NCBI GenBank assembly: GCA_964653685.1
Contig: CAZZHA010000001.1
Coordinates: 5,794 to 69,793 of the forward strand
From: an uncultured Gammaproteobacteria bacterium
GTDB lineage: Bacteria > Patescibacteriota > Microgenomatia > PFEM01 > JAHIFH01
Length of the DNA stretch: 64,000 nt
Reading direction: 5' to 3'
Part shown: positions 1 to 53,469 of the stretch, in pieces
Layout of the letters: each line of letters begins with the position of its first letter
How positions within the stretch are numbered: position 1 is the first letter of the stretch
Notes under the pieces: generated by a model
What the model saw: the letters and a program-made list of their open reading frames with translations, nothing else
Told to the model about the DNA's origin: nothing
The model's database searches: none
Position numbers and translations under genes: made by a program

Positions 1-979
1 GAATTTCGATAATTTTTCTAGCCAACGACAAACCTAGCCCAAAACCAAAAGCCTTACTTTTTGAACGGGATTGGTCCACTCGGTAAAACCGGTCAAAAAT
101 ATGAGGCAGGTCTTCTTTGGCAATCCCCAACCCCGTATCTTTTATTTTGATCAATAAGGATTTTTTATTTACCTTCGTTTCTATGGTTATCTTACCGTTT
201 TTAGGAGTATATTTAATGGCATTATCTAAAAAAATTAACATCATTTCTTCGAAACTTTCTTCATTGGCCCAAATTGTTTGTTTTCTGACATTCACTTCTA
301 TTTTGATCTTTTTCTTTTTAGCTAAGGGCAAAACCTTTCGACAGACTTTTTTAATCAGTTTAGTTGCATCGACCTTCTTGAAGCTAAGATTTTGACCATT
401 ATTTTGGTAATGAGCCAAACTCAAGAGGTTATTAGACAAAGATTGAAGGCCATCAATATCCTCCAAATTACTTTTTATCACCTTTTTGCTTTCCTTAAGA
501 GATAGCTTCTTATCCCTTAAAGCTACTTCCATTGAGGTTTTTAAAGCGGTTAAGGGAGTTAAAAGCTCATGGGAAGCATCAGCCACAAATCTTTTTTGTT
601 CTTCCATGGCCTTTTCGATCGGTCGAAGGGTTTTTCCGGCTAAAAAATAACCTGCCAAAGCAGAAACAACTAAAACCCCGCTATTTATCATTAATAGGTT
701 AAGTAATAATCTTTTTCTAGCTGCTTCTAGATCTTCAACAAGAAAAAAACGGGGAGCTATCTCTTTTAAGCGTAATGGTAAATCTTCTGGTTGTTCTGGA
801 AAAGTTTGAGGTAAAGGAACGTCAAACTCCTCGGCTCTAAACCTTAACTCTGCTCGACGAAAACCTCTTTCTAATTCCCCCACCATACCTCTATAAATCG
901 CAATACTGAAAGAAAGGCTAATGAACATAATGATAAAAAGATACCAGCCAGTTAATTTTAGTCTTGCTGATTTAAACAT
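1..979 (-). CDS. sensor histidine kinase (3' end runs off window start)
   Basis: Own minus-strand translation; not in ORF track because no stop lies within the window. N-terminal TM segments, H-box SHELLTPL, N-box DNAIKYT, G-box GLGLSLARK. ATG at 979-977 overlaps the stop of the upstream response regulator by 8 nt. Confidence 0.75.
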   Translation of the reverse strand, partial: MFKSARLKLTGWYLFIIMFISLSFSIAIYRGMVGELERGFRRAELRFRAEEFDVPLPQTFPEQPEDLPLRLKEIAPRFFLVEDLEAARKRLLLNLLMINSGVLVVSALAGYFLAGKTLRPIEKAMEEQKRFVADASHELLTPLTALKTSMEVALRDKKLSLKESKKVIKSNLEDIDGLQSLSNNLLSLAHYQNNGQNLSFKKVDATKLIKKVCRKVLPLAKKKKIKIEVNVRKQTIWANEESFEEMMLIFLDNAIKYTPKNGKITIETKVNKKSLLIKIKDTGLGIAKEDLPHIFDRFYRVDQSRSKSKAFGFGLGLSLARKIIEI

Positions 980-35126: not shown

Positions 35127-35570
35127 TTATCTTTTCGGAGATTGTTTTTTAGCTCGGGCTGATTGGGCAAGGCCGGCTTTGCGGCGCTCTTTCATTCGCG
35201 GGTCACGAGTTAAAAGACCAGCTTTTTTTAAAGGCAGATGATACAGTTCAGAGTTTTCTTTAGCCAGAGCTCTGGCTAAGCCATGGACAACTGCTCCCAA
35301 TTGACCATTTTTACCTGATCCTCTAACCTTAACCGTCGCGTAATATTTCCCTTCAGTTTTGGTGACCTGAAACGGCTTCATGTAAACGAATTCATTAACC
35401 TCACCCGGAAACCATTCTTCAATTGGCCGATCATTAACCACCAAATCGCCTTTGCCTTTTAAGAGTCTTACCCGGGCCACAGCTTCTTTTCTTCGACCAA
35501 GAGCATAAGTATAGGCTTTTTTCCGACCCCGCTTGGTTTTTCTGACTTTAACTGTTTTTTTAGTCACCAT
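35127..35570 (-). CDS. rpsI: 30S ribosomal protein S9 (N-terminal extension)
   Basis: GRRKEAVARV motif, C-terminal ...KR. Confidence 0.9.
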   Translation of the reverse strand: MVTKKTVKVRKTKRGRKKAYTYALGRRKEAVARVRLLKGKGDLVVNDRPIEEWFPGEVNEFVYMKPFQVTKTEGKYYATVKVRGSGKNGQLGAVVHGLARALAKENSELYHLPLKKAGLLTRDPRMKERRKAGLAQSARAKKQSPKR

Positions 35571-35989
35571 TATTTTTTAAATTTATCCTGATAAAGATGT
35601 TGATCGTCGCTAAACACTTTTAATCTCCTTAGTCTTTGATCTCTTAATTTATTTTTAGGTAACATACCACTGACAGCGTAGTGAATTATTTTTCTCGGAT
35701 CACGCTTCATCAATTCCTCAAAAGTTCTTTCCTTAAAACCACCAGGATAACCAGAATGATGCTGGTAGAGTTTTTGTTTTCTTTTACGACCACTGACTTC
35801 AACTTCGGCCGCATTAATAACAACAACATAATCACCGCAATCTAAATTGGTCGAGTAATAAACCTTGGTTTTACCAATTAATAATCCCGCAATCTGACTT
35901 GCTACCCGACCCAGTCTCTTATCCTTAACATCAATCAAGTACCAGCCTCTTTTAATTTCACTTGCTTTGGTTGTCTTTGTTTTTTTCAT
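35570..35989 (-). CDS. rplM: 50S ribosomal protein L13
   Basis: IKRGWYLIDVKDKRLGRVAS N-terminus. Confidence 0.9.
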   Translation of the reverse strand: MKKTKTTKASEIKRGWYLIDVKDKRLGRVASQIAGLLIGKTKVYYSTNLDCGDYVVVINAAEVEVSGRKRKQKLYQHHSGYPGGFKERTFEELMKRDPRKIIHYAVSGMLPKNKLRDQRLRRLKVFSDDQHLYQDKFKK

Positions 35990-36422
35990 TTTTTCCTCGC
36001 ACTAAGTCTTTCTTTTTCTTGTTCGACTTTTTCGGTTTTTCTTTTCCTGACTTTTCTTCAGATTTAGGTTTAGCCACTAATTCTAACTTCACCATAGTGG
36101 CATCATCACCACGACGTTGACCCAGACGAATGATTCTAGTAAAACCGCTTGATCTATCTTTAAATTGAGGAGTAATATTATCGACCAACTTATTAACAAC
36201 TTTCCTGTTATTAAGAAAAGCCTCTATTGTTCTTCGAGTGTGGAGAGTATTCTTTTTGCCCTTGGTGACTAAGCGATCAAAAAGTCGACGGACTGCCTTA
36301 GCCTTACTCTCGGTTGTTTTGATTTCCCCATGCAAAATCAAAGCGCTGAGTAAATTTTTAAACAGCGCTCGGCGGTGACTTCTTTTTCGAGATAGTTTCT
36401 TTTTAGTCACTCTATGCTTCAT
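35958..36422 (-). CDS. rplQ: 50S ribosomal protein L17 (Lys-rich C-terminal extension overlapping rplM start)
   Basis: MKHRVTKKKLSRKRSHRRAL N-terminus. Confidence 0.9.
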   Translation of the reverse strand: MKHRVTKKKLSRKRSHRRALFKNLLSALILHGEIKTTESKAKAVRRLFDRLVTKGKKNTLHTRRTIEAFLNNRKVVNKLVDNITPQFKDRSSGFTRIIRLGQRRGDDATMVKLELVAKPKSEEKSGKEKPKKSNKKKKDLVRGKNEKNKDNQSK

Positions 36423-36469
36423 TTTACTCGATTCTCAGAGAAATAAGATTCTCGCCAAAGTAATCTCTC

Positions 36470-37393
36470 TTATTTTTTCTTTTTCTTGAGAGAAACTCCT
36501 TTTTGGGATAAGGCAGCTTCAACGATGTTGACCGACTTTTCACCCAAATTTTTGACTTTAGCCAAATCGGCTTCGGTTGCCTCAACTAGATTAGCTACCG
36601 TACCATAACCTCCTTTACGGAGAGCGTTGGCGATTCTGGTTGGTAAGTCAAGCTCCTCCACTGTCAATCTCAGATTCAAATTAGGCATTTCACCCTTGGC
36701 CTTTTCCTTTTTAGGCATCTTTTTAGGAGAAGCTATTTGTTGGAAATAGCTAACCAGAATCTCAGCTGACTGTTTTAAGGCCTGACTGGGTTTAAGACTA
36801 CCGTCAGTGGTAATCTCGAAAACCAACCGATTCAAGTCAGTTCTCCGACCAACTCGAGTAGATTCGATTCGATAATTAACCTGAAGAATAGGACTAAAGA
36901 TCGCGTCAATTGGAATCTCGCCCAATTTTTCTACTTCTCTCTCTTCGGCCGGTAGATAACCATAACCAGTCTCAACAATCATCTCTGCCTTGAATCGATT
37001 CTTCCGACTAGCTAAATTGCCAATAACCAAGTCTGGATTAGCAATGTTGACATTAGCCGGAGTTTTAATATCACTCGCCTTAATTTCACCAGGACCAGTT
37101 TTTTCTAAAGTCAATTTGACTGGTTTTTTTCCTTCATAACCAACCTTAACCTGTTTAAGACCAAGAATAAACTCAATGATATCTTCCTTTAATCCTTCAA
37201 GGGTAGAAAATTTATGCTTAACGCCCGCGATCTTTACTTGAGTAATGGCGGCGCCTGGCAAAGCCGAAAGCAAAACTCGCCGCAAAGCATTACCCAGAGT
37301 GTGTCCAAATCCAAGCTCCAGGGGTTCAATCACAAAATGACCAAAATCCTGGGTTTCCTTTTCTTTTTTAATTCGAAATAATGGTTCTATCAT
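36470..37393 (-). CDS. rpoA: DNA-directed RNA polymerase subunit alpha
   Basis: GHTLGNALRRVLLS motif; C-terminal domain. Confidence 0.9.
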   Translation of the reverse strand: MIEPLFRIKKEKETQDFGHFVIEPLELGFGHTLGNALRRVLLSALPGAAITQVKIAGVKHKFSTLEGLKEDIIEFILGLKQVKVGYEGKKPVKLTLEKTGPGEIKASDIKTPANVNIANPDLVIGNLASRKNRFKAEMIVETGYGYLPAEEREVEKLGEIPIDAIFSPILQVNYRIESTRVGRRTDLNRLVFEITTDGSLKPSQALKQSAEILVSYFQQIASPKKMPKKEKAKGEMPNLNLRLTVEELDLPTRIANALRKGGYGTVANLVEATEADLAKVKNLGEKSVNIVEAALSQKGVSLKKKKK

Positions 37394-37415
37394 TAACCTC
37401 CTTTTATTATTAAAA

Positions 37416-38039
37416 TTATCTTGAATAATATTCGATTATTAACTTATCGTCAATAGCAGCTTCAATCTCTTCTCTTTTTGGCAGACGCATCATTTTACCA
37501 ATTGGGCCCTTTCTTTGCAACCATTTAGGCATATTCCTAGTCCTATCAGCCCAATTTTTCTCCACCGCCGCTATTTTCATCGCCTTCTCACTAATTCGAA
37601 TAAGATCATTAGGCTTAACTTGATAAGAAGCAATGTTAACTCTTTTGTCGTTAACATAAACATGGTCATGACTCACTAACTGCCTGGCGATTGACCGGGA
37701 GGGTGCCAAACCTAAGCGATAGACCACGTTATCTAGCCTTGATTCTAAAAGTTGAAAAAGAACCTCACCAGTCACTTGAGGATTTTTAGCTGCCTTATTA
37801 ACATAACGACGAAACTGCTTCTCCAAAACCCCATAGAGTCTTTTCGCTTTTTGTTTTTCCCTTAACTGCTGACCATATTCGCTTAATCTTTTCCTTAACC
37901 TAGGACCATGTTGGCCTGGAGGTACTGCTCCTTTTCTCTCAATTGGGCATTTGGGCGAATAACAACGTTCACCCTTTAAAAAAAGTTTGATTCCTTCGCG
38001 TCGGCAGAGCCGACATTTAGCATCAGTGTATCTTGCCAT
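37416..38039 (-). CDS. rpsD: 30S ribosomal protein S4
   Basis: MARYTDAKCRLCRREG..., S4 domain. Confidence 0.9.
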   Translation of the reverse strand: MARYTDAKCRLCRREGIKLFLKGERCYSPKCPIERKGAVPPGQHGPRLRKRLSEYGQQLREKQKAKRLYGVLEKQFRRYVNKAAKNPQVTGEVLFQLLESRLDNVVYRLGLAPSRSIARQLVSHDHVYVNDKRVNIASYQVKPNDLIRISEKAMKIAAVEKNWADRTRNMPKWLQRKGPIGKMMRLPKREEIEAAIDDKLIIEYYSR

Positions 38040-38447
38040 TTAAACTCTCCTTTTCTTTTTTGGCCTTGGTCCATTATGAGGAATTGGGGTTACATCAGCG
38101 ATCAAATTCATTTTGATGCCAGCTGCCCTCAAAGCTCTTAAAGCTGAATCGCGGCCCGATCCTGGACCTTTAATATAAACTTCAACTTCCCTGAGACCGT
38201 GAGCTAAAGCTTTTTTAGCGGCTTTTTCAACGGTACTAATAGCCGCAAAAGGAGTTGATTTTCTTGCTCCCTTAAAACCGACTTCACCTGAACTTCCCCA
38301 ACAAACGGTATTACCTTTTAAATCAGTAAAGGTAATGATCGTATTGTTAAAAGTAGCCTGGATGTAAACTTTTCCTTTAGCCACAATCTTAGGCTCTTTC
38401 TTTTGGGGTTTGGTTTTAGTTTTTTCTTTTTTAGCTTTAACCATCAT
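38040..38447 (-). CDS. rpsK: 30S ribosomal protein S11
   Basis: Characteristic S11 core. Confidence 0.9.
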
Positions 38448-38887
38448 GCCTCCTTATTTTCTTTGGCTGCTTTCTCCTCTTCTGGATTCTTCTCGGCAAC
38501 ACCAAACTTAGTTAAATCCTTTTTGCGTAATGCTCCAATTGTCTTTCGCTTACCCCTTTTTGTCCGAGCATTCGATCGAGTTCTCTGGCCACGAGAAGGT
38601 AAACCCTGCAAATGCCTCGTTCCTCGATAACTTCCAGTCACTTTCAGTTGCTTAATATTCTCGTTCACGATCGTTCTTAACTCTCCCTCCGTAGGTATTT
38701 TTTCAACCGTCTTTTGTAAACGGGTAATTTCTTCGGCCGTCAAATCCTTAATTCTTTTATTAGCATCAACGGCCGCTGTTTCTAAAACCCCTTGAACATT
38801 TCTCCGACCAATACCATAAATGGCGGTTAAACCGCTATCAACTTTTTTCTCAACTGGTAAATCAACTCCGGCAATTCGAACAGCCAT
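38444..38887 (-). CDS. rpsM: 30S ribosomal protein S13 (C-terminal extension)
   Basis: [12 protein letters not shown]-terminus. Confidence 0.9.
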
Positions 38888-38889
38888 GA

Positions 38890-39003
38890 TTAACCCTGTC
38901 TTTGCTTATGACGAGGATTAGAACAAATAACGTAGACTCGCCCTCGCCGGCGAGCAATTTTACAATTTTTACAACGTTTTTTAACTGAAGCTTTAACTTC
39001 CAT
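38890..39003 (-). CDS. rpmJ: 50S ribosomal protein L36
   Basis: Hand-found 37-aa [40 protein letters not shown] between rpsM and infA. Confidence 0.85.
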
Positions 39004-39005
39004 AA

Positions 39006-39224
39006 TTATTTCTCCCGATAAACTATTCTTCCTTTCGTCTCATCATAAGGTGTCAATTCCACCCGAACCTTATCTCCAGGCATCACTCGAATGTAATGGA
39101 TTCTTATCTTGCCTGAAAGATGACATAAAAGCTTTCTACCATCTTCAAGCTCGACCCTAAACATTGTATTGGGCAAGGCTTCGGTGACTGTTCCGGTTGC
39201 TTCTTCTTTTTTCTCTTTAATCAT
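39006..39224 (-). CDS. infA: translation initiation factor IF-1
   Basis: S1-like OB fold, ...[16 protein letters not shown]... Confidence 0.9.
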
Positions 39225-39277
39225 CGATTGAATTTTAACAAAATTTACTTACTTTTTCAAGCGTAATTAGGCATAAA

Positions 39278-40036
39278 TCATTTTCGAGTCAAAACTAATG
39301 GCTCTCCTTGGGTCACCAGAATTGTGTCTTCAAAAAGAGCCGCTAAATGACCATCGACTGTTTCTACTGTCCAACCATCTTCTCCTACCATGACTTCCGA
39401 ATTTCCTTGGGTATAAATTACCTCAATGGCCAAAGTCATATCAGACTTCAATTTTTCAGTCTCCTCTATTCTTTTTTGCAAATAACAGGGTATTTGAGGT
39501 AGTTCGTGTAATTTTTTTCCCACCCCATGACCCGCTAAAGCCTGGACGGGTTGCCAGCCTTTGCTCTCAATTGTTGTTTGGATTGCCTGAGAGAGATGGC
39601 CAATCCGATTACCTAGTCTGACTGAATTAATAGCAACCTCTAAAGCCTCCTTACCAGCCGATAGAAATTCTTTTTCCTTAAGTCGTTGATCAGTGCCTAT
39701 GTCACCTACTAGCAAGCTATTAGCCTTATCAGTGTGATAGCCTTTGTAAAAGATACCAATATCGATACTAAGTAGGTCACCTATCTTTAATCGATAGTCA
39801 TTGGGAATTCCATGAACAACTCCCTGATTAACATTTAAACAAGTCGCCCAATGATAATCCTTAACCATTTTGAAAGAAGGTTTCCCATTTTGTTTTTTAA
39901 TGAGCTCTTCAGCTGAAATATCAATCTCTTTCAAACTCATTCCTGGCTTAATTTTGAGTTGTTCAAAAACCCAAGCTAATTTCCTACCCCCCTCCTGCAT
40001 TATCTTAATCTCTCTAGCGGTTTTTAAGGGAATCAT
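39278..40036 (-). CDS. map: methionine aminopeptidase type I
   Basis: MAP pita-bread fold; metal ligands in DIGI, HGVGK, EVIYTQG regions. Confidence 0.85.
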   Translation of the reverse strand: MIPLKTAREIKIMQEGGRKLAWVFEQLKIKPGMSLKEIDISAEELIKKQNGKPSFKMVKDYHWATCLNVNQGVVHGIPNDYRLKIGDLLSIDIGIFYKGYHTDKANSLLVGDIGTDQRLKEKEFLSAGKEALEVAINSVRLGNRIGHLSQAIQTTIESKGWQPVQALAGHGVGKKLHELPQIPCYLQKRIEETEKLKSDMTLAIEVIYTQGNSEVMVGEDGWTVETVDGHLAALFEDTILVTQGEPLVLTRK

Positions 40037-40608
40037 TGACTTAACCGTTCCATAATTTCTTGATGAATGACTTCAACTGGTCGTTCGCCATCAACTTCCA
40101 TTAAGATCCCTTTATCTCGAAAATAAGCGATAATCGGATCAACCGTTCGATGGTGGGAATTCAAACGTGCTTGGATTAATTCTTTAGTGTCATCCAACCG
40201 GGCTTTACCTTTAGTCTCACGGCTTTTCTCAGCTCGTAAAAGCAATCTTTCAACTGCCCCTTGATCAGAAATTAATAAAAGAATTGCCCAATTAATCTCT
40301 TCGCCCTCTTCTTTTAAATATTCCTCTAAAGGAGGAACTTGATCTATTCTCCGAGGATAACCATCTAAAACAAAACCTCGATAATGTTTATCCAAAGCTG
40401 GCTTCAAAACCTTAAAGGTTAATTTTCCTGGAACCCAATTTCCTTTCCCCCAATATGAATGAGCTTTTAACCCATCGGGTGTTTTTTGCTCATAGGCTTG
40501 ACGAAAAAGTGCTCCCATAGAAATAGTCGGAATTTCAAGTTTTTTGGCTAAAAGCTCTGCTTGGGTTCCTTTGCCTGAACCAGGAGCACCAAAAATAACA
40601 AAATTCAT
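40033..40608 (-). CDS. adk: adenylate kinase
   Basis: P-loop [10 protein letters not shown]. Confidence 0.85.
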
Positions 40609-41891
40609 TTTAGAAAACCCTCATAGCTTCTCATGGTCATCATCGCTTCTAATTGACGAGTTGTCTCCAAAATGACCGAAACGACAATCAAAATCCCGGT
40701 ACCGCCAATCGTCAGAGTGGCAATCCCAGTTAAGCCTTGGGCAATTGATGGTAAAATAGCAATCAAACCTAGGAAAATCGCTCCGGCTAAAGTAATTCTG
40801 TTTAAAATTCGATTAAGATAATCAGCCGTTGGTTGACCAGGACGAATTCCGGGAATGAAACCACCATACTTACGAATCTCCTCAGCAATTTTATCTGGAT
40901 TAAAAACCACTGCCGTGTAAAAATAGGTGAAACCAACCACTAATAAGAAATAGGTAAGATTATAGACAACACCGCCTGGTTGAAAGATGGTGGCCAAACT
41001 AACCGCTATTTTAGCAATCATTGGTTGAGGCACTCCCTGAAGAAAACTACCCAACATTGAAGGTAGAAGAATCAAGGAAACCGCAAAAATAATAGGAATC
41101 ACTCCGGCTTGATTAATTTTTAAAGGTAAATAAGTTGATTGACCGCCATAAATCTTTCTACCTCTCATCCGACGAGCATACTGAATCCTAATTTTTCGAC
41201 TCGCCTCGTCAACCACTATAATAGCCACAATGACCGCTAAGGCCATTGCTAGAAAAATGATGAGATTAAACAAATTACCTGGTTCGAAAATACTAAAAGT
41301 TTGACCGAGTTCGACCGGATAACGAGCAACAATCCCGGCAAAAATCAACATGGAAATTCCGTTGCCAATACCGTATTCACTGATCAATTCGCCTAACCAC
41401 ATCAAGAAAATCGTCCCAGCCACCATGGTGATAACTAAACTAATCAAACTCAGTGGTGAAAGACTGGTAATGATCTGTTGGTTTTTTAAAAGAGCATACA
41501 TACCCAAAGATTGAACCATAGCTAAAGGAACGGTTAAAATCCGAGTATACTGGTTAATTTTTTCTCGACCATATTCACCTTCTTTAGAAAGTTCTTCTAG
41601 TTGAGGAATCACCATCGTCAATAATTGAAAAATAATTGAGGCATTAATATAGGGATTAAGGCCAAGAGCCATAATCGAAAAATTGGCCAAAGTGCCACCC
41701 GAAAAAATATCCAATAAACCTAATAATTGGTTGCGGGCAAAGAGCTCTCGCAGAGCGGCAGTATTAACTCCACCGACGGGAACATGGGCAGCAAAGCGAA
41801 AAACAATAAAAATCCCAGCTGTAAAAAGGATTTTTTTTCTTAATTCGGCAATTTTCCAGGCATTAAGAAGAGTATTAAGAATTCTATTCAT
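40605..41891 (-). CDS. secY: preprotein translocase subunit SecY
   Basis: 10 TM, SecY signature regions. Confidence 0.9.
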
Positions 41892-42487
41892 CTTTTAACT
41901 TCTTTTTTATTAACTTTGGTTATTTCCTTTTTCTTCTTTGTTGCTTTCTTTTGGGTCTTAACGGTCTTAACCAGTCCTGACTTCTCTTTCTTGGTTGACT
42001 CAGGTTTTAATTGATTAATCTTGAGCTGTTTTTTAACCTTAATTACTTTGCCTCCGGCTTTTTCAATTTTTTTGGTCGCTCCCTTAGAGGCAGGTAGCTC
42101 AACAATTAGAGCCACATTCAAATCACCATCACCCAAAATTTTAACTCCTTGTTTTTCAGTTTCATCCCTCATTAAGATTCCCTTTTTGACTAGAGTGATT
42201 AAATTGACTTTTTCCCCTTTCTTAAAAAGATTGAGATATTTAAGGTTAACCACCAAAGGCTTAGGCTTTAATGACTTAAATCTTCCTTTACCTCGCTGAA
42301 GTGGCAGTCTTTTAAGAAAAGATTTCTTTGTTTTAGTTCCTTCGAAGGTTAAACCAACTTTATTTCGAGCTTTTAGTCCCTTTGCACCTCGACCAGCGGT
42401 ATGACCACCTTTACCTGAACCATAACCTCGACCGACTCTTTTCTTTTTCCTCCTAGTAGTTTTTGGTAATTTATCTAATTTTATCAT
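41888..42487 (-). CDS. rplO: 50S ribosomal protein L15 (long Lys-rich C-terminal extension)
   Basis: [16 protein letters not shown] motif. Confidence 0.9.
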
Positions 42488-42488
42488 T

Positions 42489-42974
42489 TTAATTTCCTTT
42501 TGAACGTTTAAGCTGCTTCAAAGCTTCAAGAGTCGCATAAACATTATTAATCTTATTATTACTCCCCAGGATTTTAGAAACAATATCCTTTATTCCCGCC
42601 GCTTCAACCACCACCCGAACCGCACCACCGGCTTTAACCCCTGTTCCTGGAGGAGCTGGTTTGATTAAGATTTTGGCGGCACCTCGTTTAATCCGTACCT
42701 CGTGAGGAATAGTAGTTCCTTTAATAGGGACCTCAATCATTTTCTTTTTAGCTTGTTTCATCCCTTTTTGGATTCCAGAAATCACGTCAGGCGCCCTACC
42801 CAAACCAATACCAACCCTTCCCTTTCTATCACCAACAACGGTCAGAACCGAAAAGCTAATCCGGTTACCTCCCTTTGTCTTTTTCGAAACTCGATTAACT
42901 TGAACCACTTTCTCCTCAAACTCTTTTTCTTCTTGATTTTCCTCTATCATTCTTCTTCTAGGTTGATTAAACAT
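42489..42974 (-). CDS. rpsE: 30S ribosomal protein S5
   Basis: S5 dsRBD and C-terminal domains; directly abuts rplO (no rpmD/L30 between). Confidence 0.9.
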
Positions 42975-43017
42975 TATTTTATTTTTCTTAATTTTAAATT
43001 AATTTTTTAAGCCTTAA

Positions 43018-43368
43018 TTAAAATTTAAGACCTCCTTCTCTAACACCTTCAGCCAGCGCCTTGACTCGTCCGTGATAGCGATAAGGGCCGCGATCAAAAA
43101 TAACCTTTTTAATTTTCTTTTTCAGCGCTTTTTTTGCTAAGGCTTCTCCAATCAACTTAGCCTTCTCGGTTTTGGTAACTGATTTAACTTCTTTGCTAAG
43201 ATCTTTCTCGCTCGCTCCCACTAAAGTCTGACCCTGTTCATCATTAATAAGTTGAGTGTAAATCTTTTTATTAGAACGAAAAACCGATAACCTTGGTCTT
43301 TCGTTTGTCCCTTTAATTTTTTGTCTGACTCTGTTTTTTCTTTTTAATTTTTGCTCTTTTTTAGTCAT
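43018..43368 (-). CDS. rplR: 50S ribosomal protein L18
   Basis: [20 protein letters not shown] motif. Confidence 0.9.
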
Positions 43369-43380
43369 CTTTCCTCCTGA

Positions 43381-43947
43381 TTAATTACTACCAGCAGAAC
43401 CCCCTTCGCCGACTTTACCAGCCTTACCTGGTTTTCGCCTCACTTCTTCATCTTGATAACGGACACCTTTGCCTTTATAAGGTTCGGGCGGTCTAATCTG
43501 ACGAATCTTAGCGGCCACTTGACCAACTAAGGCTTTATCAATTCCAGAGATTTTGATTGTTTCTTTATCCCCAACTTCAAATTGAATTCCTTTAATTGGT
43601 TCAACTACCACTGGATGAGAAAAACCTAAAGACAAAACCAAATTTTCCTCCTGCTTTTCTGCCCGATAACCTGTGCCGACTAATTTTAAGACTTTACTGT
43701 AACCTTGAGTGACACCAGTAATCATATTCGCCACTAAAGTTCTTATTAGGCCGTGCAAAGAACGACTAAATTTATCATTCTTTTTCCGAATGACTTTAAT
43801 TTCGTCTTGACCAATCTCTAATTTGATTTCCGACCGAATCTTTTGCTTCAACTCGCCTAGGGGGCCTTTTACTGTCAAAGTTAAACCATGATAATTAATT
43901 CCGACTCCCTCTGGTATTTTAACTGGTTGTTGACCTATTCTCGACAT
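43381..43947 (-). CDS. rplF: 50S ribosomal protein L6 (start trimmed to MSRIGQQP)
   Basis: L6 two-domain repeat; ORF-track N-terminus overlaps rpsH. Confidence 0.85.
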   Translation of the reverse strand: MSRIGQQPVKIPEGVGINYHGLTLTVKGPLGELKQKIRSEIKLEIGQDEIKVIRKKNDKFSRSLHGLIRTLVANMITGVTQGYSKVLKLVGTGYRAEKQEENLVLSLGFSHPVVVEPIKGIQFEVGDKETIKISGIDKALVGQVAAKIRQIRPPEPYKGKGVRYQDEEVRRKPGKAGKVGEGGSAGSN

Positions 43948-43954
43948 TTTTCCT

Positions 43955-44347
43955 TTACCATAATTGACAAATAACTTCGCCGCCAAGTTTTTTCTTTTTG
44001 GCTTGCTTATCGGTCATTAAGCCTTTAGAGGTAGAAAGAATTCTCATCCCAAAACCACTTCTAATCGGCTTTAGCTTTTTAGCTTGAAGATAAACCCTCA
44101 GGCTAGGCTTAGAAACGCGTTCTATATTTGTAATCGCCGGCTCTTGGTGTGGATATTTCAAACCAACAACTAGTTGTTTTTCTTGAGGTTTTTTACCTTC
44201 AACTGTTATCTCTTTAAGATAGCCTTCCTTAACCAAAATCTTGGCTAAATTTTCTTTAGTGGCCGAATAAGGCACTTTAAATTTCCTTTTCCGAACAGCA
44301 TAGCCATTTTTAATTCTAGTAATTAAATCACCAATTGGATCAGTCAT
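43955..44347 (-). CDS. rpsH: 30S ribosomal protein S8
   Basis: MTDPIGDLITRIKNG N-terminus. Confidence 0.9.
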   Translation of the reverse strand: MTDPIGDLITRIKNGYAVRKRKFKVPYSATKENLAKILVKEGYLKEITVEGKKPQEKQLVVGLKYPHQEPAITNIERVSKPSLRVYLQAKKLKPIRSGFGMRILSTSKGLMTDKQAKKKKLGGEVICQLW

Positions 44348-44348
44348 T

Positions 44349-44534
44349 CTACCAACTTGCCTTAGTTACCCCAGGCAACTCTCCTTTATGAGCTAATTCG
44401 CGAAAACAAAGCCGACAAAGACCAAAGAGGCGTAGATAGGCTCTTGGCCGACCGCAAAGTTGACAGCGATTATGCTGTCGAGTTGGATATTTTGGTTTTC
44501 GACCATCTTTAACAACTTTTGATTTTTTTGCCAT
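44349..44534 (-). CDS. rpsZ: 30S ribosomal protein S14 type Z (zinc-binding)
   Basis: 61 aa with CxxC...CxxC. Confidence 0.9.
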
Positions 44535-45097
44535 TATTTCTCTCCTTTTTCAAAAGGCATACCTAATAACTCTAACAATCTCTTGGCCTTTTCATTTGTT
44601 CGGGCATTGGTTACAATCGTCATCTCCAAACCTCTGACTTTGTCCACCTTAGAATGATCAATCTCTGAAAAAACAATCTGTTCTGGTATTCCAAGACTGT
44701 AATTACCTTGACCATCAAAGCTCTTCAAAGAAACCCCTTGAAAATCTCTTAACCGAGGCAAAACGACGCTTATCAGCTTTTCTAAAAAATCATACATCCG
44801 GCGGCCTCTTAAAGTAACCATCAGGCCAATTGACTGACCTTTGCGTAATTTAAAACCAGCAATTGATTGTCGAGCCCGAGTCGTCTTGGGTCGCTGGCCA
44901 GTGATCATCGCTAAATCTTCACTGGCTGCTTCTAAAGCTTTCTTGTTATCTAAAGCCTCACTTAAACCAATATTAACTACAATCTTCTTTAATTTTGGTG
45001 CCGCCAAAGAATTACCTAGACCAAATTCTTTGGTCAGTTGAGGGGCAATTTCCTTCTGATATTTTTCTTTTAAATTATTGTTTGACATTTCCGACAA
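44534..45097 (-). CDS. rplE: 50S ribosomal protein L5
   Basis: L5 core motifs. Confidence 0.9.
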
Positions 45098-45399
45098 ATT
45101 CTTGCTTTAACCACCTTATTACGAACCTTACCACTCTTTTGTTCAATCCGATAACCGACTCGGGTCGGCTTTTTGCATTTCGGACAGAAAAGGGCAACGT
45201 TAGCTATAGGTAAAGGCTTAACAATTTCAATAATCCCACCTGGTTTTTTATCGCTTTGCTTCCGGGCATGTTTTTTATAAACATTAATACCTGGAATAAG
45301 CGCCTTATTGATCTTAGGAAAAATCTTTTCAATCTTTCCTTTGCGACCCTTATCTTTACCCTTAAGGACGATAACTAAATCACCTTTCTTTAATTTCAT
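45070..45399 (-). CDS. rplX: 50S ribosomal protein L24 (C-terminal CxxC..CxxC extension overlapping rplE start)
   Basis: [22 protein letters not shown] motif. Confidence 0.85.
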
Positions 45400-45764
45400 A
45401 TGACCTCCGTAGCCAGAGAAGCAATCTTAGCATAACCCAAATCTTTAATTTCCCTAGCCACCGGACCTAAAATTCTGGTCCCTTTCGGATTACCATGCTT
45501 ATCAATAATCACCGCCGCGTTGTCATCAAAGCGAACAAAAGAACCATCGGTCCGACCCTGTTCTTTTTTGGTTCTAACAATGACGGCCCTAACTACCTCG
45601 GCATCTTCAACCACGCCACTAGGATCAGCCTGATCAACAATAGCCACAACAACGTCGCCAATTCTACCAAAGCGTCGCTTTGAACCACCTAAAACCAGAA
45701 TCACTTTTAATCTTTTCGCCCCAGTATTATCGGCTGGCTTTAGAATTGTTCTTAACTGAATCAT
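45396..45764 (-). CDS. rplN: 50S ribosomal protein L14
   Basis: [18 protein letters not shown]-terminus. Confidence 0.9.
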
Positions 45765-45991
45765 TTTTTAACCACCTTTAAAACCTTCCATTTCTTAGTT
45801 TTGCTGATTGGTTTTGTCTCCGTAATAATGACTTGATCACCAACTTTAACTCCCAATTCATCATGGGCATGAAATTTTTTCTTAACTTTCATTCTCTTTT
45901 TATAAATAGGATGAATCTTAAGTCTAACAACCTCAATAGTAGCCGTTTTATTCATTTTAGTCCTAATAACTTCACCTTTAAATTGTCTCAT
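45761..45991 (-). CDS. rpsQ: 30S ribosomal protein S17
   Basis: OB-fold S17. Confidence 0.9.
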
Positions 45992-46191
45992 TTAGTTAAC
46001 TCCTTTTCTCTTAGAATTGTTTTTAAAAACGCCAATTGATGACGCTGATTCATCAATTGATGAAAGTTCTTAAGCTTACCCGCTTTTAGCTCTAATCTCA
46101 ACTCAGCTAATTTTTCTTCTACCTTACCTATCTCTTTTTGCAATTGAACGATGGTTTTTTGATGTAATTCCTGCTTTTCTTTGTTTTTCAT
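45988..46191 (-). CDS. rpmC: 50S ribosomal protein L29 (start trimmed to MKNKEKQ)
   Basis: About 67-aa helical L29; ORF-track extension runs into rplP. Confidence 0.8.
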   Translation of the reverse strand: MKNKEKQELHQKTIVQLQKEIGKVEEKLAELRLELKAGKLKNFHQLMNQRHQLAFLKTILREKELTK

Positions 46192-46192
46192 T

Positions 46193-46600
46193 CTAATCCT
46201 TCTTAATGAACTTGGTTCTAAAAGGCAATTTTGCTCCGGCTCGCTTAATCGCTTCTTTAGCGATTTTTTCATCAACACCGGCCAGTTCAAAAATAATTCT
46301 GCCAGGTGTAACTACGGCAACATGATGATCAATCGCGCCTTTACCCGATCCCATCCTGACACCTGCTGGTTTCTTAGTAACTGGTTTATCGGGAAAAACT
46401 CGAATCCAAATTTTACCTTGTCTTTTGGTTTGATGGGTAATTGCTTTCCGAGCCGCTTCAATTTGCCGGGCCATCAGCCAACCACGACCAAGACTTTTTA
46501 AACCATAATCACCAAAAGTCAGAGTCGAACCCCTAATCGATTTACCTTTCATTCTACCCCGAAATTGTTTCCGGTATTTAGCTCTTTTTGGTTCTAGCAT
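46193..46600 (-). CDS. rplP: 50S ribosomal protein L16
   Basis: [20 protein letters not shown]-terminus. Confidence 0.9.
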
Positions 46601-46602
46601 GA

Positions 46603-47250
46603 TTATTCTTCTTTCTCGCCTTTATAAACCCAAACTTTCACCCCAACGTAACCAAATCTAGTGATGGCCGGAATTTGAGCATAGTCAATTTCCGCTCGCA
46701 AAGTCTGTAAAGGAACGGCTCCCTTTTTAAAAGTTTCGGTTCGACTAATTTCTGCCCCACCGACTCGACCTGAGAGAGCAATTTTAATCCCCTGAGCGCC
46801 GGCATCCATAGCTCGTTCAATCGTTTTATTGGCCACTCGACGATAAGGCATCCTTTTCTCTAATTGCTGAACGACTCGAACCGCTATCAATTGGGCTGAT
46901 AATTCTGGTTCTTTGACTTCTTCAACATCCAACTCCAAATTCTTTTCTGGTTCAGTTAGACTCACCATCTTCACTAAGTCTTTTTTTAAAAGTTCTAGGC
47001 CAGAACCGCCTCGACCAATGACCACTCCTGGCCGAGAGACTTTTAAGGTAATTTTCATTTTGTTAATTGATCGTTCAATCTGAGCTTCAACGATACCGGC
47101 TAAAGCTAATTTATCCATAAGATAACGACGGATTCGATGATCCTCTAAAATATTTTTTCGATATTGTTTGGAATCACGAGCAAACCAGCGTGATCGCCAC
47201 TGCTTAGAATTTGTTAATCTAAATCCAAATGGATTAATTTTTTGTCCCAT
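46603..47250 (-). CDS. rpsC: 30S ribosomal protein S3 (start trimmed to MGQKINP)
   Basis: KH domain + S3 C-domain; start overlaps rplV 3' end by about 17 nt. Confidence 0.85.
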
Positions 47251-47656
47251 GTTTTTTTCCTTTTTTAATTTTAGCCGAAACCGGTTTTTTCTCTTTCTTG
47301 ATTGATTTTTTAGCCTTTTTTTCTTCCTCACCTTCAAGAATAATTTTGATATGAGCCATCTTCTTCAAAATCTGATGAACTCTGCCTTTAGCAACAAAAC
47401 GATAACGTTTCATTTGAGGGCCTTTACTAATTTCTAATCTTTTAATTTTCAAATTATCTTTTTCAAGATGAAAATTATTTTCGGCATTGGCAATCCCTTG
47501 TCTTAAAGTTTTTAACAATAATCTGGCAGCCTTTTTATTGAAACTTTTCAAGATTATCTCTGCTTCTAGAGCCTTTAGGCCGCGAATCTCAGCCGCTACT
47601 AAACGTAACTTCCTTGGTGTTTGGCGAACAAATTTGGTTTGAGCAATAACTTCCAT
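47234..47656 (-). CDS. rplV: 50S ribosomal protein L22 (C-terminal extension)
   Basis: L22 core. Confidence 0.9.
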   Translation of the reverse strand: MEVIAQTKFVRQTPRKLRLVAAEIRGLKALEAEIILKSFNKKAARLLLKTLRQGIANAENNFHLEKDNLKIKRLEISKGPQMKRYRFVAKGRVHQILKKMAHIKIILEGEEEKKAKKSIKKEKKPVSAKIKKGKKHGTKN

Positions 47657-47662
47657 TTTTCT

Positions 47663-47947
47663 TTAAGTTTTAGTAACAAGTCGCTTAACCACTCGACCAT
47701 GACCCCGAAAAGTCCGAGTCGGCGCAAATTCACCTAACCGTTGACCAACCATGGCCTCGGTGACAAAGACATCAATAAAATTTCGACCATTATGGACCTG
47801 AAAAGTGTGGCCCACAAATTCTGGCGGAATTTGACTAGCTCGAGCCCAAGTTTTAATTGGCTCTTTTTTACCCGTTTCTTTTTGAGCCATAACCTTTTTT
47901 AACAATTTTTGGTCGATATATGGTCCTTTTTTACTAGATCTACTCAT
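47663..47947 (-). CDS. rpsS: 30S ribosomal protein S19
   Basis: [13 protein letters not shown]-terminus. Confidence 0.9.
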
Positions 47948-48704
47948 AGCGCCTCTTTCTACCTTTAATGATTAATTTATCACTATATTTCTTTGATTTT
48001 CGCGTCTTTTTCCCTAAGGTCTTTTTTCCCCAAGGTGACTTAGGGCTAGGCATACCAATCCCGGAACGACCTTCACCGCCACCGTGCGGATGAGAACTGG
48101 GATTTTGAGCCACTCCTCGAACCGAGGGGCGAATCCCCATATGCCTTTTTCTGCCCGCTTTACCTAGTTTTCTGGTTTTCAATTCTGGCTTACCAACCTG
48201 ACCAACAGTGGCGTAACAATCTTCCTTAATTAACCTTTGCTCGCCTGATGGTAATTTGACAATAACATAACCTTTTTCCTTACTGGCAATCGTTGCCCCA
48301 GTGCCTGCGCCACGAACAATTTGACCACCCTTACCTGGCGTTAATTCGATATTATGGATAACTGTTCCCATTCTAATTATCTTTAAGGGTAAGGCATTAC
48401 CAGGTTTAATTTCCGCTTTTTCACCAGCCATAACCAAATCACCAACTTTTAAACCAACTGGGGTAAGAATGTACCTTTTTGCCCCATCCGAATAGTGCAA
48501 AAGAGAGATATCGGCTCCACGATTAGGCGAGTATTCAATCGAAACGACTTTAGCTTCGATATCTCGTTTATCTCTCCTAAAATCAATTTCTCTTAAAAAC
48601 CTTTTTTGTCGACCACCCTGGTGGCGGGTTGTTACCCTGCCAAGAGCATTTCTACCCGAATGTTTCTTTAAGATTTTCTTTAATTTTTTCTGTTTTCTCG
48701 CCAT
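47940..48704 (-). CDS. rplB: 50S ribosomal protein L2 (start trimmed to MARKQKK)
   Basis: L2 motifs incl. GGGEGRSG-like region. Confidence 0.9.
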
Positions 48705-48708
48705 TTTT

Positions 48709-49002
48709 TTATTCTCCAGTTTCAAAAATATCAATTTTTTCGCCTTCAGCTAATTCAACTACGGCTTTTTTCCAATCTGGCTGCTTCACCGGCTGACGAT
48801 TACGGCCACTCCGCTTAGTTTTTCCTCGAAAATTCACCGTTCTCACCTTGATAACCTTAACACCAAATGTCTTCTCAATTGCTTGGGCAACCTCTAACTT
48901 ACTAGCTCTTTGATCAACCTCAAAAACATAACGCCCCCAGGCTGATTCTTGAGTTCCTTTTTCAGTAACAATTGGTCTTTTTAAAATATCTTTAGCTTTC
49001 AT
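48709..49002 (-). CDS. rplW: 50S ribosomal protein L23
   Basis: L23 fold. Confidence 0.9.
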
Positions 49003-49649
49003 TATTTCAGAAAAGTTTCTTTTAATTTTTTAATACTTTCTTCCATTAAGACAACCTGCTTTTGACTCAGAACCTGGTAAGGGTTAAGCTGATTAGCCTG
49101 AACCAATTGAACCCCAGCCAGATTCCTTGAGGCCCGAATAACATTCTCTAAAACCTCTGGCAAAACCAAAAGAATCTTCACTTCCTTTTTCTTTTTTTCC
49201 TTTAAGGGCAGCTTAGTAAGAATCGTAGCCATGGTTTTAGTTTTTGGTTCCACTTTCCCCAGTCCCTTAACCGCAATGATTTCTTCTTCCTTAAATTTAC
49301 TTGTTAGAGCGGAGAATAAGGCTTGGCGCTTCATTTTCTTGCTCATTTTCAACTTATAATTTTCCTTGCCCGTTGGGCTGTGAGCCCGGCCACCACCAAC
49401 GAAAATCGGAGCATAACGATCACTATGACGGGCCCGACCTGTACCTTTTTGACGCCAAATTTTTCTTCCGGAACCTGCCACTTCGGCCCGAGTTTTGGTT
49501 TTAGCGCCGGCTTTTCTTTGATTTGAAAGATAAACTTTAACAGCCTGAGCCATTAAAAGTTTATTAATCTTCGCCTCAAAAATCTCCTTAGGCAGACTAA
49601 TTTGACCTGCTTTTCTACCAGTAATTGTATAGAGATCAACTTTAGCCAT
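49002..49649 (-). CDS. rplD: 50S ribosomal protein L4 (start trimmed to MAKVDLY)
   Basis: L4 core. Confidence 0.9.
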   Translation of the reverse strand: MAKVDLYTITGRKAGQISLPKEIFEAKINKLLMAQAVKVYLSNQRKAGAKTKTRAEVAGSGRKIWRQKGTGRARHSDRYAPIFVGGGRAHSPTGKENYKLKMSKKMKRQALFSALTSKFKEEEIIAVKGLGKVEPKTKTMATILTKLPLKEKKKKEVKILLVLPEVLENVIRASRNLAGVQLVQANQLNPYQVLSQKQVVLMEESIKKLKETFLK

Positions 49650-50505
49650 TGTCTTTTGCCTCCTCAACTGGTTCTTCTTTTGTTTTTTTCTCTTTTTCCT
49701 CCACTGATTTTTCCTCCTGACCTGATTGTGGTTTGGCTTCAGTTTCTCCAGCAGCTACCAAAGCTTCTTTGGCTTCTTCTTCTCGCCGCAAACGTTCAGT
49801 TCGCTGCTCCTCGGTTTCTTCAATCTCCTTTTTACCTACCTCCATTAAAGGCACAAAACGCTTGGTCTTGCCCGTTTTGGTAATAATCAAAAGCCCGTTT
49901 TGGGCGCCTGGCACCAATCCTTTGATTAATAATTCTTCATTTTCCTTATCAATTGCCTGAATTGTCAATCCCTTGACGGCTATTCGAGCATTACCGGCCC
50001 TCCCGGGCATTTTCTTACCTTTATGAACTCTACCAGGAGTGGTGCCTTGACCAATTGAACCTGGTGCTCTTTCTCGATCAGATTGACCATGGGTTCGCGG
50101 TCCACCTTTAAAACCCCAACGCTTCACAACACCGGTAAAACCCTTACCCTTTGACCAACCAGTCACTTTTATCTGGTCGCCTGGCTGAAAAATATCAGCG
50201 ACTTTAAGCCGCTCACCCACTTTAATTTCATCCCCAAGAGGCTTCTCTAATCTAATTTCCCGCAAAAAACGAGGAGCCTTTTCTAATTTAGCTCCTCTTA
50301 AATGTCCTTTTAATGGTTTCTTAATCTTAGTCATCTTTTTTTCTCCCCAGCCGACCTGAACTGCATGATAGCCATCTTTTTTTTCATCTCGAATCTGAAC
50401 CACATAACAAGGTCCAGCCTTAATTCTGGTTACTGGTATCCTGGTGCCATCTTGAGTAAATCTCTGATTGACTTCTTTTTTTATGCCTAAGATTGTGTTT
50501 AACAT
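49642..50505 (-). CDS. rplC: 50S ribosomal protein L3 with roughly 75-aa acidic C-terminal tail (start trimmed to MLNTILG)
   Basis: L3 core FQPGDQIKVTGWSKGKGFTG...; Glu/Lys-rich tail. Confidence 0.9.
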   Translation of the reverse strand: MLNTILGIKKEVNQRFTQDGTRIPVTRIKAGPCYVVQIRDEKKDGYHAVQVGWGEKKMTKIKKPLKGHLRGAKLEKAPRFLREIRLEKPLGDEIKVGERLKVADIFQPGDQIKVTGWSKGKGFTGVVKRWGFKGGPRTHGQSDRERAPGSIGQGTTPGRVHKGKKMPGRAGNARIAVKGLTIQAIDKENEELLIKGLVPGAQNGLLIITKTGKTKRFVPLMEVGKKEIEETEEQRTERLRREEEAKEALVAAGETEAKPQSGQEEKSVEEKEKKTKEEPVEEAKDNG

Positions 50506-50510
50506 TTTGA

Positions 50511-50537
50511 CCACCAAAAAGAGTGCCGGAGGCACTC
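50511..50537 (-). promoter_or_regulatory. leader hairpin + U-run immediately upstream of the rplC RBS (possible attenuator/autoregulatory site)
   Basis: Minus strand GAGUGCC-UCCG-GCACUC followed by UUUUUGGUGG then ATG. Confidence 0.4.
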
Positions 50538-50605
50538 TTAGGGTTACTCCATTAACTAAATTAGTTTACTTTCAATAGGTGTTTAACCTCACCTCCATTA
50601 GCAAA

Positions 50606-50634
50606 TATTATAGAAAAATTCAGGATAAAAAGCA
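50606..50634 (-). promoter_or_regulatory. sigma70-type promoter for rplC-led operon (TTGCTT-17-TATAAT)
   Basis: Perfect -10 and 17-nt spacer read on minus strand, roughly 100 nt upstream of rplC start. Confidence 0.6.
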
Positions 50635-50668
50635 AGCTGATTTTATTGTGAGTAAAATTAGAGCTAAT

Positions 50669-50962
50669 TTAATCAATTCCCCAGAATTTCTTCTCGCCCT
50701 CTTCATCTGGACCAATGAATTTCAGTTGTAAAAAATCCTTTAAGTCACTAATAAAATGGCCAATGCCAAAAGAAAAAGATAATTGTCCTAAAAGATGCTG
50801 ATAAAAAAATAAACCAAGCAGCATTAACATCACCCCATAAATCCAATGATGAGGAGCCCAAGTGGGATTATTAAGTTTCATATTAAGATAATAATGGCTC
50901 CATCTTCCAAGTAGATATCCTATTAAAGCAGCAATGACGAAAAAGAGGATTTTCCAGATCAT
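50669..50962 (-). CDS. hypothetical small membrane protein
   Basis: 3 predicted TM segments; no family recognised. Confidence 0.4.
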   Translation of the reverse strand: MIWKILFFVIAALIGYLLGRWSHYYLNMKLNNPTWAPHHWIYGVMLMLLGLFFYQHLLGQLSFSFGIGHFISDLKDFLQLKFIGPDEEGEKKFWGID

Positions 50963-50990
50963 TTTCTTAATTCTACCAAACCAAACGATA

Positions 50991-51017
50991 TTGACCTTTT
51001 AATTTTTCTGCTATAAT
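50991..51017 (+). promoter_or_regulatory. promoter for 51030 gene (TTGACC-15-TGCTATAAT), 12-nt leader
   Basis: Hexamers by eye; no SD before ATG. Confidence 0.4.
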
Positions 51018-51029
51018 TATTTACATTAT

Positions 51030-52272: not shown

Positions 52273-52339
52273 GGGGAGTCAATTATATCACTAGCTATGT
52301 AAATACAAAAACCCAGTAAATCGGGCTTTTCTATCCCTG

Positions 52340-52367
52340 ACTCCCTATCGTGGACGAAGTTAGAACT
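52340..52367. repeat. conserved 28-bp upstream motif, copy 1 (ACTCCCTATCGTGGACGAAGTTAGAACT)
   Basis: 22/28 identical to copy at 54027-54054; lies 50 nt from TGATATAAT -10 of the methyltransferase gene. Confidence 0.7.
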
Positions 52368-52377
52368 GGTTTGAGCT

Positions 52378-52800: not shown

Positions 52801-52810
52801 GTTTTCATTA

Positions 52811-52845
52811 TACCAAACAAAAAAAGCCCATTAGCTTGGGCTTTC
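52811..52845 (-). terminator. intrinsic terminator (AAAGCCCA-AGCUAA-UGGGCUUU + U7)
   Basis: Perfect 8-bp stem then UUUUUUUGUUUGG on minus strand; immediately followed by TGGTATAAT and the EamA-like ATG. Confidence 0.7.
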
Positions 52846-52934
52846 TGAAATTAGTTCGGCCAATAAAGCCATTTACAAACTCCAAATGTAAATTGGTCCA
52901 ACCAAAAACCTTTTGCTGGGAAACCAATTTTAAA

Positions 52935-53426: not shown

Positions 53427-53469
53427 CTTTCCTCACCCCCTTTCTTTTTCCTTTAAAAGGTTCCTAATT

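Follow-up and report, generated by a model that had tools for sequence, protein, structure and literature searches.

The window, as the whole 64,000-nucleotide (nt) stretch of DNA analysed here is called, carries on its minus strand a long ribosomal protein (r-protein) super-operon running from rplC to rpsI, and directly ahead of rplC, the gene for protein L3, lies a compact element composed of a promoter, a short leader and a hairpin followed by a U-tract. The same promoter, leader and hairpin stand ahead of rplC in about 30 distinct relatives known from metagenomes (L3 proteins 59-90% identical), and the position ahead of rplC is exclusive. Most likely it is a switch, not described before, that controls ribosome production by feedback. 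It is considered probable that it acts as a regulated transcription attenuator of some kind, and the particular reading developed below, that of a conserved 5' regulatory leader of the super-operon in Microgenomates-like bacteria of the Candidate Phyla Radiation (CPR), working as a three-helix switch with an r-protein as its effector, is put forward tentatively and with rather less than even confidence.

Promoter, leader and terminator-like hairpin ahead of rplC

Read along the minus strand, the element passes from the promoter through 8 nt to AAUGGAGGUGAGGUUAAACACCUAUUGAAA, then through a variable middle that includes GGAGUAAC to the hairpin, five U's, GGUGG, UCAAA and the rplC AUG, with a leader length of 94 nt from the predicted start at 50599 to that AUG (50505-50503). 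The promoter hexamers, read directly from the sequence, are a -35 TTGCTT (50635-50630, minus strand) and a -10 TATAAT (50612-50607, minus strand) separated by a 17-nt spacer. When 23 leaders from two clades of relatives (clades A and B, defined below) were aligned on an AUG close to their 5' end (50598 in the window), TTGC(T/A)(T/A) was found kept at this place in at least 80% of them and TATAAT in 21, and the distance from the -10 to the AUG was 8 nt in all 23. From this fixed distance transcription is predicted to begin at the A/A of 50598..50599 (minus strand), the 8th-9th nt past the -10. The hexamers are fixed in position across the 23 leaders, and the spacer and discriminator drift; two leaders (L073 and L151) have lost the -35 and carry instead TGnTAAAAT, an extended -10, at the same distance. 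Such turnover of hexamers with retention of their position would be the behaviour expected of a working promoter. An earlier note on this DNA had placed a near-consensus promoter at 50606-50634; the promoter itself is borne out and its -10 is consensus, but "near-consensus" does not describe the -35, which agrees with TTGACA at 3 of 6 positions, and the coordinates were one base off. The pattern TTGNNN-16..18-TATAAT occurs three times in the 64-kb window. A second occurrence, with a 17-nt spacer, is at 35075-35103 (minus strand), just past rpsI and ahead of a DUF5320 gene (35034-34786) that has GGAGGTGA as its Shine-Dalgarno (SD) sequence.

The terminator-like hairpin, AAGAGUGCC-UCC-GGCACUCUU with its U5 (50516..50539, minus strand), was recognised by folding, by a scan of the window and in the alignment of relatives. 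Its core consists of GAGUGCC (50537-50531) and GGCACUC (50527-50521), seven base pairs (bp) closed by a 3-nt UCC loop, and the stem can be extended to 9 bp as AAGAGUGCC/GGCACUCUU (50539-50519), with a folding free energy (dG) of -12.7 kcal/mol; the 3' end of this longer stem overlaps the U5 run (50520-50516). The terminator-like character of the hairpin and the abutment of its U-run on the ribosome-binding site of rplC had been proposed before and are upheld, with the loop corrected from UCCG to UCC. A scan of both strands for at least 6 perfect bp, a dG of -8 kcal/mol or lower and a T5 tail found three sites in 64 kb, against a shuffle mean of 0.35, and the rplC leader hairpin is one of them. 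The other two strong sites are at 46032-46060 (minus strand), within the r-protein operon near the rpmC/rpsQ junction, and at 18075-18096 (plus strand). A consensus-based scan of the window reported neither the rplC promoter nor the leader hairpin, and we infer that it missed the hairpin because maximal extension of the stem takes up two of the tail T's and leaves too few. A bidirectional terminator was considered and rejected, since on the plus strand there is neither a T-run past the hairpin nor a converging gene.

Directly past the U-tract and 5 nt ahead of the AUG is GGUGG (50511..50515, minus strand), the SD-like element of rplC, the place of which is taken in relatives by GGUGG, AGUGG, GAUGG, UGUGG or CGUGG. 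Other genes of the window have GGAGG or GGAGGTGA, and by this comparison the earlier description of the rplC SD as weak is fair. The start codon of rplC is the ATG at 50505, from which an N-terminus MLNxILG is conserved in relatives. A GTG at 50535, use of which would make the hairpin coding sequence, was rejected as the start because in relatives the spacer from GGUGG to AUG differs in length by 1-2 nt and includes stop codons, and because it is from the ATG that the conserved MLNxILG begins. Database L3 gene calls (P0001 and P0002; 297 amino acids, aa) begin 10 codons early, at the GTG inside the terminator hairpin. Two other candidate signals were dropped: CsrA-type GGA sites, the rplC SD having no GGA, and a boxA or Nus-factor site (CCUAUUGAAA, CUCUUUUGA, CAUCUUUGA), a likeness that is inconsistent in L159, L162, L079 and L004.

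Conservation of the element in relatives

Homologues of the L3 protein of the window fall in Microgenomates/Patescibacteria, and 162 loci around L3 relatives were compared. In clade A, with L3 identities of about 72-90% and 17 distinct leaders including that of the window, the element is found in every member; the same layout is seen in clade B (L092, L032, L102, L099, L097 and L017) and in the intermediate members L158, L159 and L162. A covariance model built from the 17 leaders and run on the window and all loci, some 1.2 Mb, gave 36 matches at E < 1e-3 (29 of them at E < 1e-4), one in the window and all directly 5' of rplC; a borderline match in L001 (9597-9680) is coding sequence at the rpsQ/rplN junction and was set aside. 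The distant Microgenomates L075, L076, L077, L079 and L004 match the clade-A model at E 0.03-5 or not at all, and were assigned by layout, each having a promoter, a G-rich hairpin at the 5' end, and then a second hairpin whose loop is C-rich and which is followed by six or more U's.

The block at the 5' end of the leader and the whole of the hairpin sequence stay constant over L3 identities of 59-90%, and elsewhere the leader drifts. Comparison of clades A and B leaves just two invariant blocks: the 5'-terminal R-AUG-GGAGGU(GA), and the terminator (apex GCCUCCGGC, GCC-UCC-GGC), which is followed by U5-7 and GUGG. Terminator pairing is intact in 97.8% of the cells of 25 clade A/B sequences, the changes being G-U wobbles only, and in the five distant members compensatory changes occur at pairs 3-7 of the stem. 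A hairpin followed by at least five U's is present in all of the approximately 30 relatives; conservation of the hairpin among relatives was the test that the earlier note had named for its proposal, and the hairpin proved to be conserved.

Origin of the element and the detachment of rpsJ

The gene rpsJ is indeed detached in the window, as had been noted: it lies at 57313-57621, behind fusA-tuf, and about 6.8 kb separates it from rplC. This interval holds eight non-ribosomal open reading frames (ORFs), two of them on the opposite strand, whose products include methyltransferase, EamA-like, GNAT, LTD/fn3 and GH113-like proteins. From this arrangement it had been proposed that rplC gained its promoter because rpsJ moved away, and that the leader is a relocated S10-type leader. 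The real distance of 6.8 kb speaks for a promoter and leader newly acquired, or for an S10/L4 leader moved to a new place, but the identical element occurs in many relatives in which rpsJ directly precedes it (L002, L069, L115/L149, L148, L153, L156, L157, L158, L159, L162 and L076, and in clade B L092, L032 and L017), with a gap between rpsJ and rplC of 107-240 nt (107-144 nt in most) that is filled by the promoter and leader, and the leader matches no known leader in Rfam. These comparative data refute an origin through the detachment of rpsJ. The element is instead, as judged by comparison of loci, ancestral to the clade and older than the detachment, because it is present both where rpsJ adjoins and where one to eight genes have been inserted.

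In other relatives genes have also entered between rpsJ and the promoter, differing by lineage and lying always upstream of the promoter: one opposite-strand gene in L151 (a NUDIX gene) and L155, two genes in L152, 0.7-1.5 kb of inserted sequence in L001, L073, L077 and L099, and several kb in the window, L068 and L154. In L068, the closest relative, a methyltransferase homologue adjoins the leader and the two ORFs found in the window at 50669-51590 are absent. Possession of its own promoter by rplC probably made the detachment of rpsJ tolerable, and the rpsJ-rplC junction, otherwise very stable, would tolerate repeated insertions because rplC already had that promoter. Within this CPR clade the junction is a hot spot for insertions, holding 0, 1, 2 or up to 8 unrelated genes (50636-57312 in the window). 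The str operon of the window is interrupted as well, by a gene with a sulfotransferase domain (61551-62126) and by an unknown ORF of 118 aa (61133-61489) between rpsG (62163-62735) and fusA (58891-61017).

A candidate three-helix switch

The invariant 5' block, GGAGGUGA (50589..50596, minus strand), is a perfect SD sequence and would form the shared 5' strand of two mutually exclusive helices. One of these is the hairpin P1 (50577..50594, minus strand), a candidate anti-antiterminator found with RNAfold and RNAalifold, in which, in clade A, AGGUG (50594-50590) pairs with CACCU (50581-50577) across an 8-nt loop (5 bp, dG -5.9). The other is a candidate antiterminator in which the 5' GGAGGUG pairs with UGCCUCC (50528..50534, minus strand), an anti-SD-like strand made up of the 5' arm and loop of the terminator. 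When clade A/B leaders were folded without the 3' arm of the terminator, which represents the state immediately ahead of the termination decision, the minimum-energy fold paired GGAGGU(G) (nt 4-10) with (U)GCCUCC in 14 of 18. In the 25-sequence alignment 99% of the antiterminator cells are paired, and all changes are wobble-compatible: A6>G in L162, by which a G-U pair is kept in both P1 and the antiterminator, G10>A in clade B, which turns a G-U into an A-U pair, and C>U in L092. P1 shows one-sided wobble changes in L072 and L162. L159 has UGGAG:CUCCA in its place, in a shifted register but with a partner strand that still matches the 5' block, and clade B and the distant members close their 5' hairpin with different C- or U-rich strands. 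A riboswitch was rejected, since both the P1 loop and the mid-leader vary in sequence and length and the 5' hairpin of clade B is not the same.

Mainly from the joint invariance of these two strands against a drifting background, we infer a three-helix switch. A sigma-70-type promoter would start the RNA about 8 nt past TATAAT, and the nascent RNA of about 85 nt could take up two alternative folds. In the OFF state CACCU would hold GGAGGUG in P1, GAGUGCC-UCC-GGCACUC-U5 would form, and transcription would stop just ahead of the ribosome-binding site of rplC; in the ON state the free 5' block would pair with UGCCUCC, and RNA polymerase would continue into rplC. An r-protein of the operon, when in excess over ribosomal RNA (rRNA), would bind P1 and/or the invariant terminator hairpin and so tip the balance towards termination, in an autogenous feedback. 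Both the protein effector, for which L4 is one candidate, and the direction of control are assumed here by analogy with L4 in the S10 leader of E. coli and L10(L12)4 in the rplJL leader of Bacillus subtilis. The lower terminator stem is invariant even though it is not needed for antiterminator pairing, which suggests sequence-specific recognition; an r-protein effector would explain this invariance and has the stronger precedent of the two effector candidates considered. A further helix between AAC[C/U] of the mid-leader and [G/A]GU past the terminator, which would mask the SD, was noted by eye, with 7 sequences having ACC:GGU and 6 having ACU:AGU; in alignment A3 its pairing amounts to 47%, or 76% with a slide of -1, and being dependent on register the helix is tentative.

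Several observations weigh against the switch as drawn, or against its protein effector. The folding energy of the whole leader is not significantly different from that of shuffled sequences (z -1.1 and -1.4), so that it is the local hairpin and the comparison with relatives that lend support. No double compensatory change was found in the alignment for either P1 or the antiterminator, whose columns are near-invariant and give covariation no power, and a shuffle control of the antiterminator duplex on the window sequence was not significant (139/2000). In L158 and L076 a GGAAG together with a CCCCC loop breaks the proposed antiterminator pairing. The P1 loop sequences differ between clades, which makes a protein site on P1 doubtful. 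As for mimicry of rRNA, local alignment to E. coli 16S and 23S alone gave no significant similarity to 23S, and a marginal one of the leader (50503-50599) to 16S nt 138-219 (L163), with a score of 30 where the 95th percentile of shuffles was 28 and their maximum 36; the aligned helices h8-h10, with AAGAG..CCUUCGG..CUCUU of h10 opposite the terminator, are structurally incongruent. No rRNA of the lineage itself is present in the window or the other 162 loci.

The two exceptional leaders (L158 2940-3039 and L076 3959-4050) belong to separate lineages, and in both GGAAG in place of GGAGG co-occurs with CCCCC in place of CCUCC, a joint change that is not Watson-Crick compensatory.

Alternative explanations

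The same RNA switch could be operated by the translation machinery. According to this ribosome-mediated attenuation, which is regarded as rather unlikely and is nonetheless the strongest competitor, either a 70S ribosome translating a leaderless mini-ORF that spans P1 or the capture of a 30S subunit at the SD would decide whether the 5' block pairs with UGCCUCC, and transcription of the operon would track free ribosomes or translation capacity. The candidate mini-ORF, possibly leaderless, reads AUG GAG GUG AGG UUA AAC ACC UAU UGA (MEVRLNTY*; 50572..50598, minus strand); its AUG is the one at a fixed distance from the -10 in every clade A/B leader, and the predicted RNA begins at it or 1 nt ahead. 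A purine start nucleotide together with U3 and G4 of the antiterminator helix could, however, also account for this "AUG". Elsewhere the AUG is replaced, by CUG in L159 (a lineage represented on 22 contigs) and by GUG, poor for leaderless initiation, in L004, L076 and L079. An ORF starting with NUG near the transcription start is open for 6-10 codons in 16 of 16 representative leaders tabulated (6-8 codons in nearly all members), and in all clades its stop codon lies inside the 3' strand of the 5' hairpin or no more than a few nt away; the ORF of L079 is frameshifted, but that sequence comes from a contig of 3x coverage. MEV[RK][LF] is kept although its codons change, synonymously or conservatively (AGG/AGA/AAA/AAG/CGU and UUA/UUG/CUA/CUG/CUC). 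Of the 9 minimal changes in codons 2-5, 6 fall at third positions, a weak bias (p=0.04). L076 and L004 differ by an in-frame indel of 3 nt, and L158 has a 1-nt indel that is compensated, both in keeping with coding. Against coding, codons 6-8 are conserved in the manner of an RNA stem and not of codons, and the change in L162 replaces E by G in a way that preserves RNA pairing. GGAGGUGA ranks with the strongest SDs of the genome, being identical to those of the genes at 35034 and 28264, yet no start codon follows it within 4-9 nt; it would also prefer the canonical anti-SD (-15.2 kcal/mol) to the internal mimic UGCCUCC (-11.3), a terminator segment that itself resembles an anti-SD. The unconserved P1 loops are easier to reconcile with a ribosome, which would not need their sequence, than with a protein, which probably would, and the rplJL leader of Bacillus subtilis is likewise influenced by a leader peptide. 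On the other side, no case in which ribosomes attenuate an r-protein operon is known to us, which counts against it. The narrower proposal that the leader senses ribosomes directly, free ribosomes or 30S subunits competing with the anti-SD mimic UGCCUCC for the 5' block so that the ribosome level would set transcription, is thought unlikely.

The remaining explanations dispense with a switch. The hairpin may be constitutive, either an unregulated, leaky terminator or insulator that ends the tuf-rpsJ RNA or a 5' stabiliser that presents the ribosome-binding site, so that hairpin and internal promoter together would fix the ratio of the upstream genes to the r-protein operon with no conditional control. 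Transcripts from upstream would enter the hairpin, rpsJ in the relatives having no terminator of its own ahead of the promoter, the U-tract of the window is just 5 nt long and is followed by GG, and no alternative structure is proven by covariation; but it would be self-defeating to have a strong, conserved promoter ahead of a terminator that served the upstream operon alone, the constraint on the 5' block and hairpin over L3 identities of 59-90% is far above what a generic terminator or stabiliser needs, and the element stays at rplC where rpsJ is kilobases away (the window, L068 and L154). A constitutive role is for these reasons judged improbable. It is more doubtful still, to the point of being very improbable, that the element is a stand-alone small RNA gene of about 85 nt that merely lies beside rplC. 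It does form a complete unit from promoter to terminator, and termination would yield a defined RNA whose 5' end is SD-like, but every one of the 36 covariance-model matches is on the same strand as rplC with its U-tract abutting the rplC SD, there are none elsewhere, the stretch from hairpin to AUG, about 14 nt in most, showed no separate promoter-like site for rplC in the intergenic sequences inspected by eye, and no Rfam family is matched.

The operon and other features of the window

The first gene of the operon, rplC (49642..50505, minus strand), encodes an L3 of 287 aa (Pfam PF00297) whose N-terminus is conserved in relatives. Beyond the usual length of about 210 aa, this L3 is extended at its C-terminus by a Glu/Lys-rich tail of about 75 aa, and the proteins of relatives are 260-300 aa long. 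The operon, rplC-rplD-rplW-rplB-...-rplQ-rplM-rpsI (35127..50505, minus strand), is a series of contiguous ORFs with Pfam matches to L3, L4, L23, L2, L22, S3, L17, L13 and S9; its approximately 27 genes bring together the S10, spc, alpha and L13/S9 clusters along with secY, adk, map and infA. The window also contains a class A RNase P RNA at 20525-20818 (minus strand, 116 bits) and a tRNA-Pro(GGG) gene at 31700-31774 (plus strand).

Comparison with known regulatory leaders

Members of the Patescibacteria/CPR have tiny genomes, few regulators and unusual ribosomes, and a single promoter over about 27 genes would make the element a main control point of ribosome output in these cells. Should the effector be the ribosome itself, whether by competition between SD and anti-SD mimic or through the leaderless mini-ORF, the element would represent a new logic of ribosome homeostasis; should it be an r-protein, a further, independently evolved r-protein leader would be at hand, suited to inclusion in Rfam and to studies of RNA-protein recognition. 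Rfam searches at the gathering threshold on the whole window and 16 related loci, and at E <= 10 on 50350-50800, found no leader family, the hits being only snoRNA and miRNA noise (E about 1-8). The Rfam r-protein leaders accordingly show no homology to the element, with the reservation that inclusion of a model of the E. coli S10 leader in Rfam is unconfirmed. A literature search found nothing on cis-regulatory r-protein leaders in Patescibacteria/CPR, nor on an rplC leader or promoter.

The likeness to r-protein attenuation leaders that the earlier note had pointed out is a reasonable one. The E. coli S10 leader, of about 172 nt with five hairpins, lies ahead of rpsJ and is subject to L4-mediated, NusA-dependent attenuation as well as translational control. 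In common with it the present element has a terminator hairpin with a U-run in the leader of an operon that includes rplC-rplD, just ahead of the ribosome-binding site of the first gene, along with a presumed r-protein feedback and a terminator hairpin whose specific sequence appears to matter. The differences are that the leader here stands past rpsJ and ahead of rplC in every relative, has a length of about 95 nt, includes a candidate antiterminator, and by Rfam search has no detectable homology of sequence or structure to the S10 leader. One published account confines the E. coli S10 (L4) leader to some Gammaproteobacteria (PMC3616713).

R-protein leaders commonly act through terminators (PMC7247131). 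In the B. subtilis rplJL leader an anti-antiterminator, an antiterminator and a terminator alternate, L10(L12)4 stabilises the anti-antiterminator and thereby promotes intrinsic termination, and a translated leader peptide modulates expression via Rho (PMC4538822). This leader is the closest match to the layout proposed here, which is experimental there and predicted in the present case, and it differs in operon, phylum and RNA. The only reported leader candidate upstream of rplC that was found in the literature search is L4-Archaeoglobi, directly upstream of rplC-rplD-rplW-rplB (Eckert & Weinberg 2020, PMC7247131). That candidate is archaeal and unrelated, the leader described here giving no Rfam match to it at E <= 10. 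Ribosome-dependent attenuators of the leader-peptide type with leaderless short ORFs have reportedly been described in mycobacteria. Leader-peptide attenuators resemble the element in that a short ORF, a candidate one here, lies at the extreme 5' end and overlaps alternative hairpins upstream of a terminator; unlike them, the candidate mini-ORF here has no runs of regulatory codons and contains an SD, and the target is an r-protein operon.

Long spacers between rpsJ and rplC are found outside the CPR too, of about 220 nt and visibly conserved in sequence in the Anaerolineae loci L010, L014, L015, L020 and L084, and of 170-245 nt in the Actinomycetota loci L023, L026, L027, L029, L033, L034, L040, L044 and L045. 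These spacers match no Rfam family and may be further undescribed leaders ahead of rplC. The element of the window and its Microgenomates relatives would be akin in function to the E. coli S10/L4 attenuator and in layout to the B. subtilis rplJL leader, and is a member of neither family.

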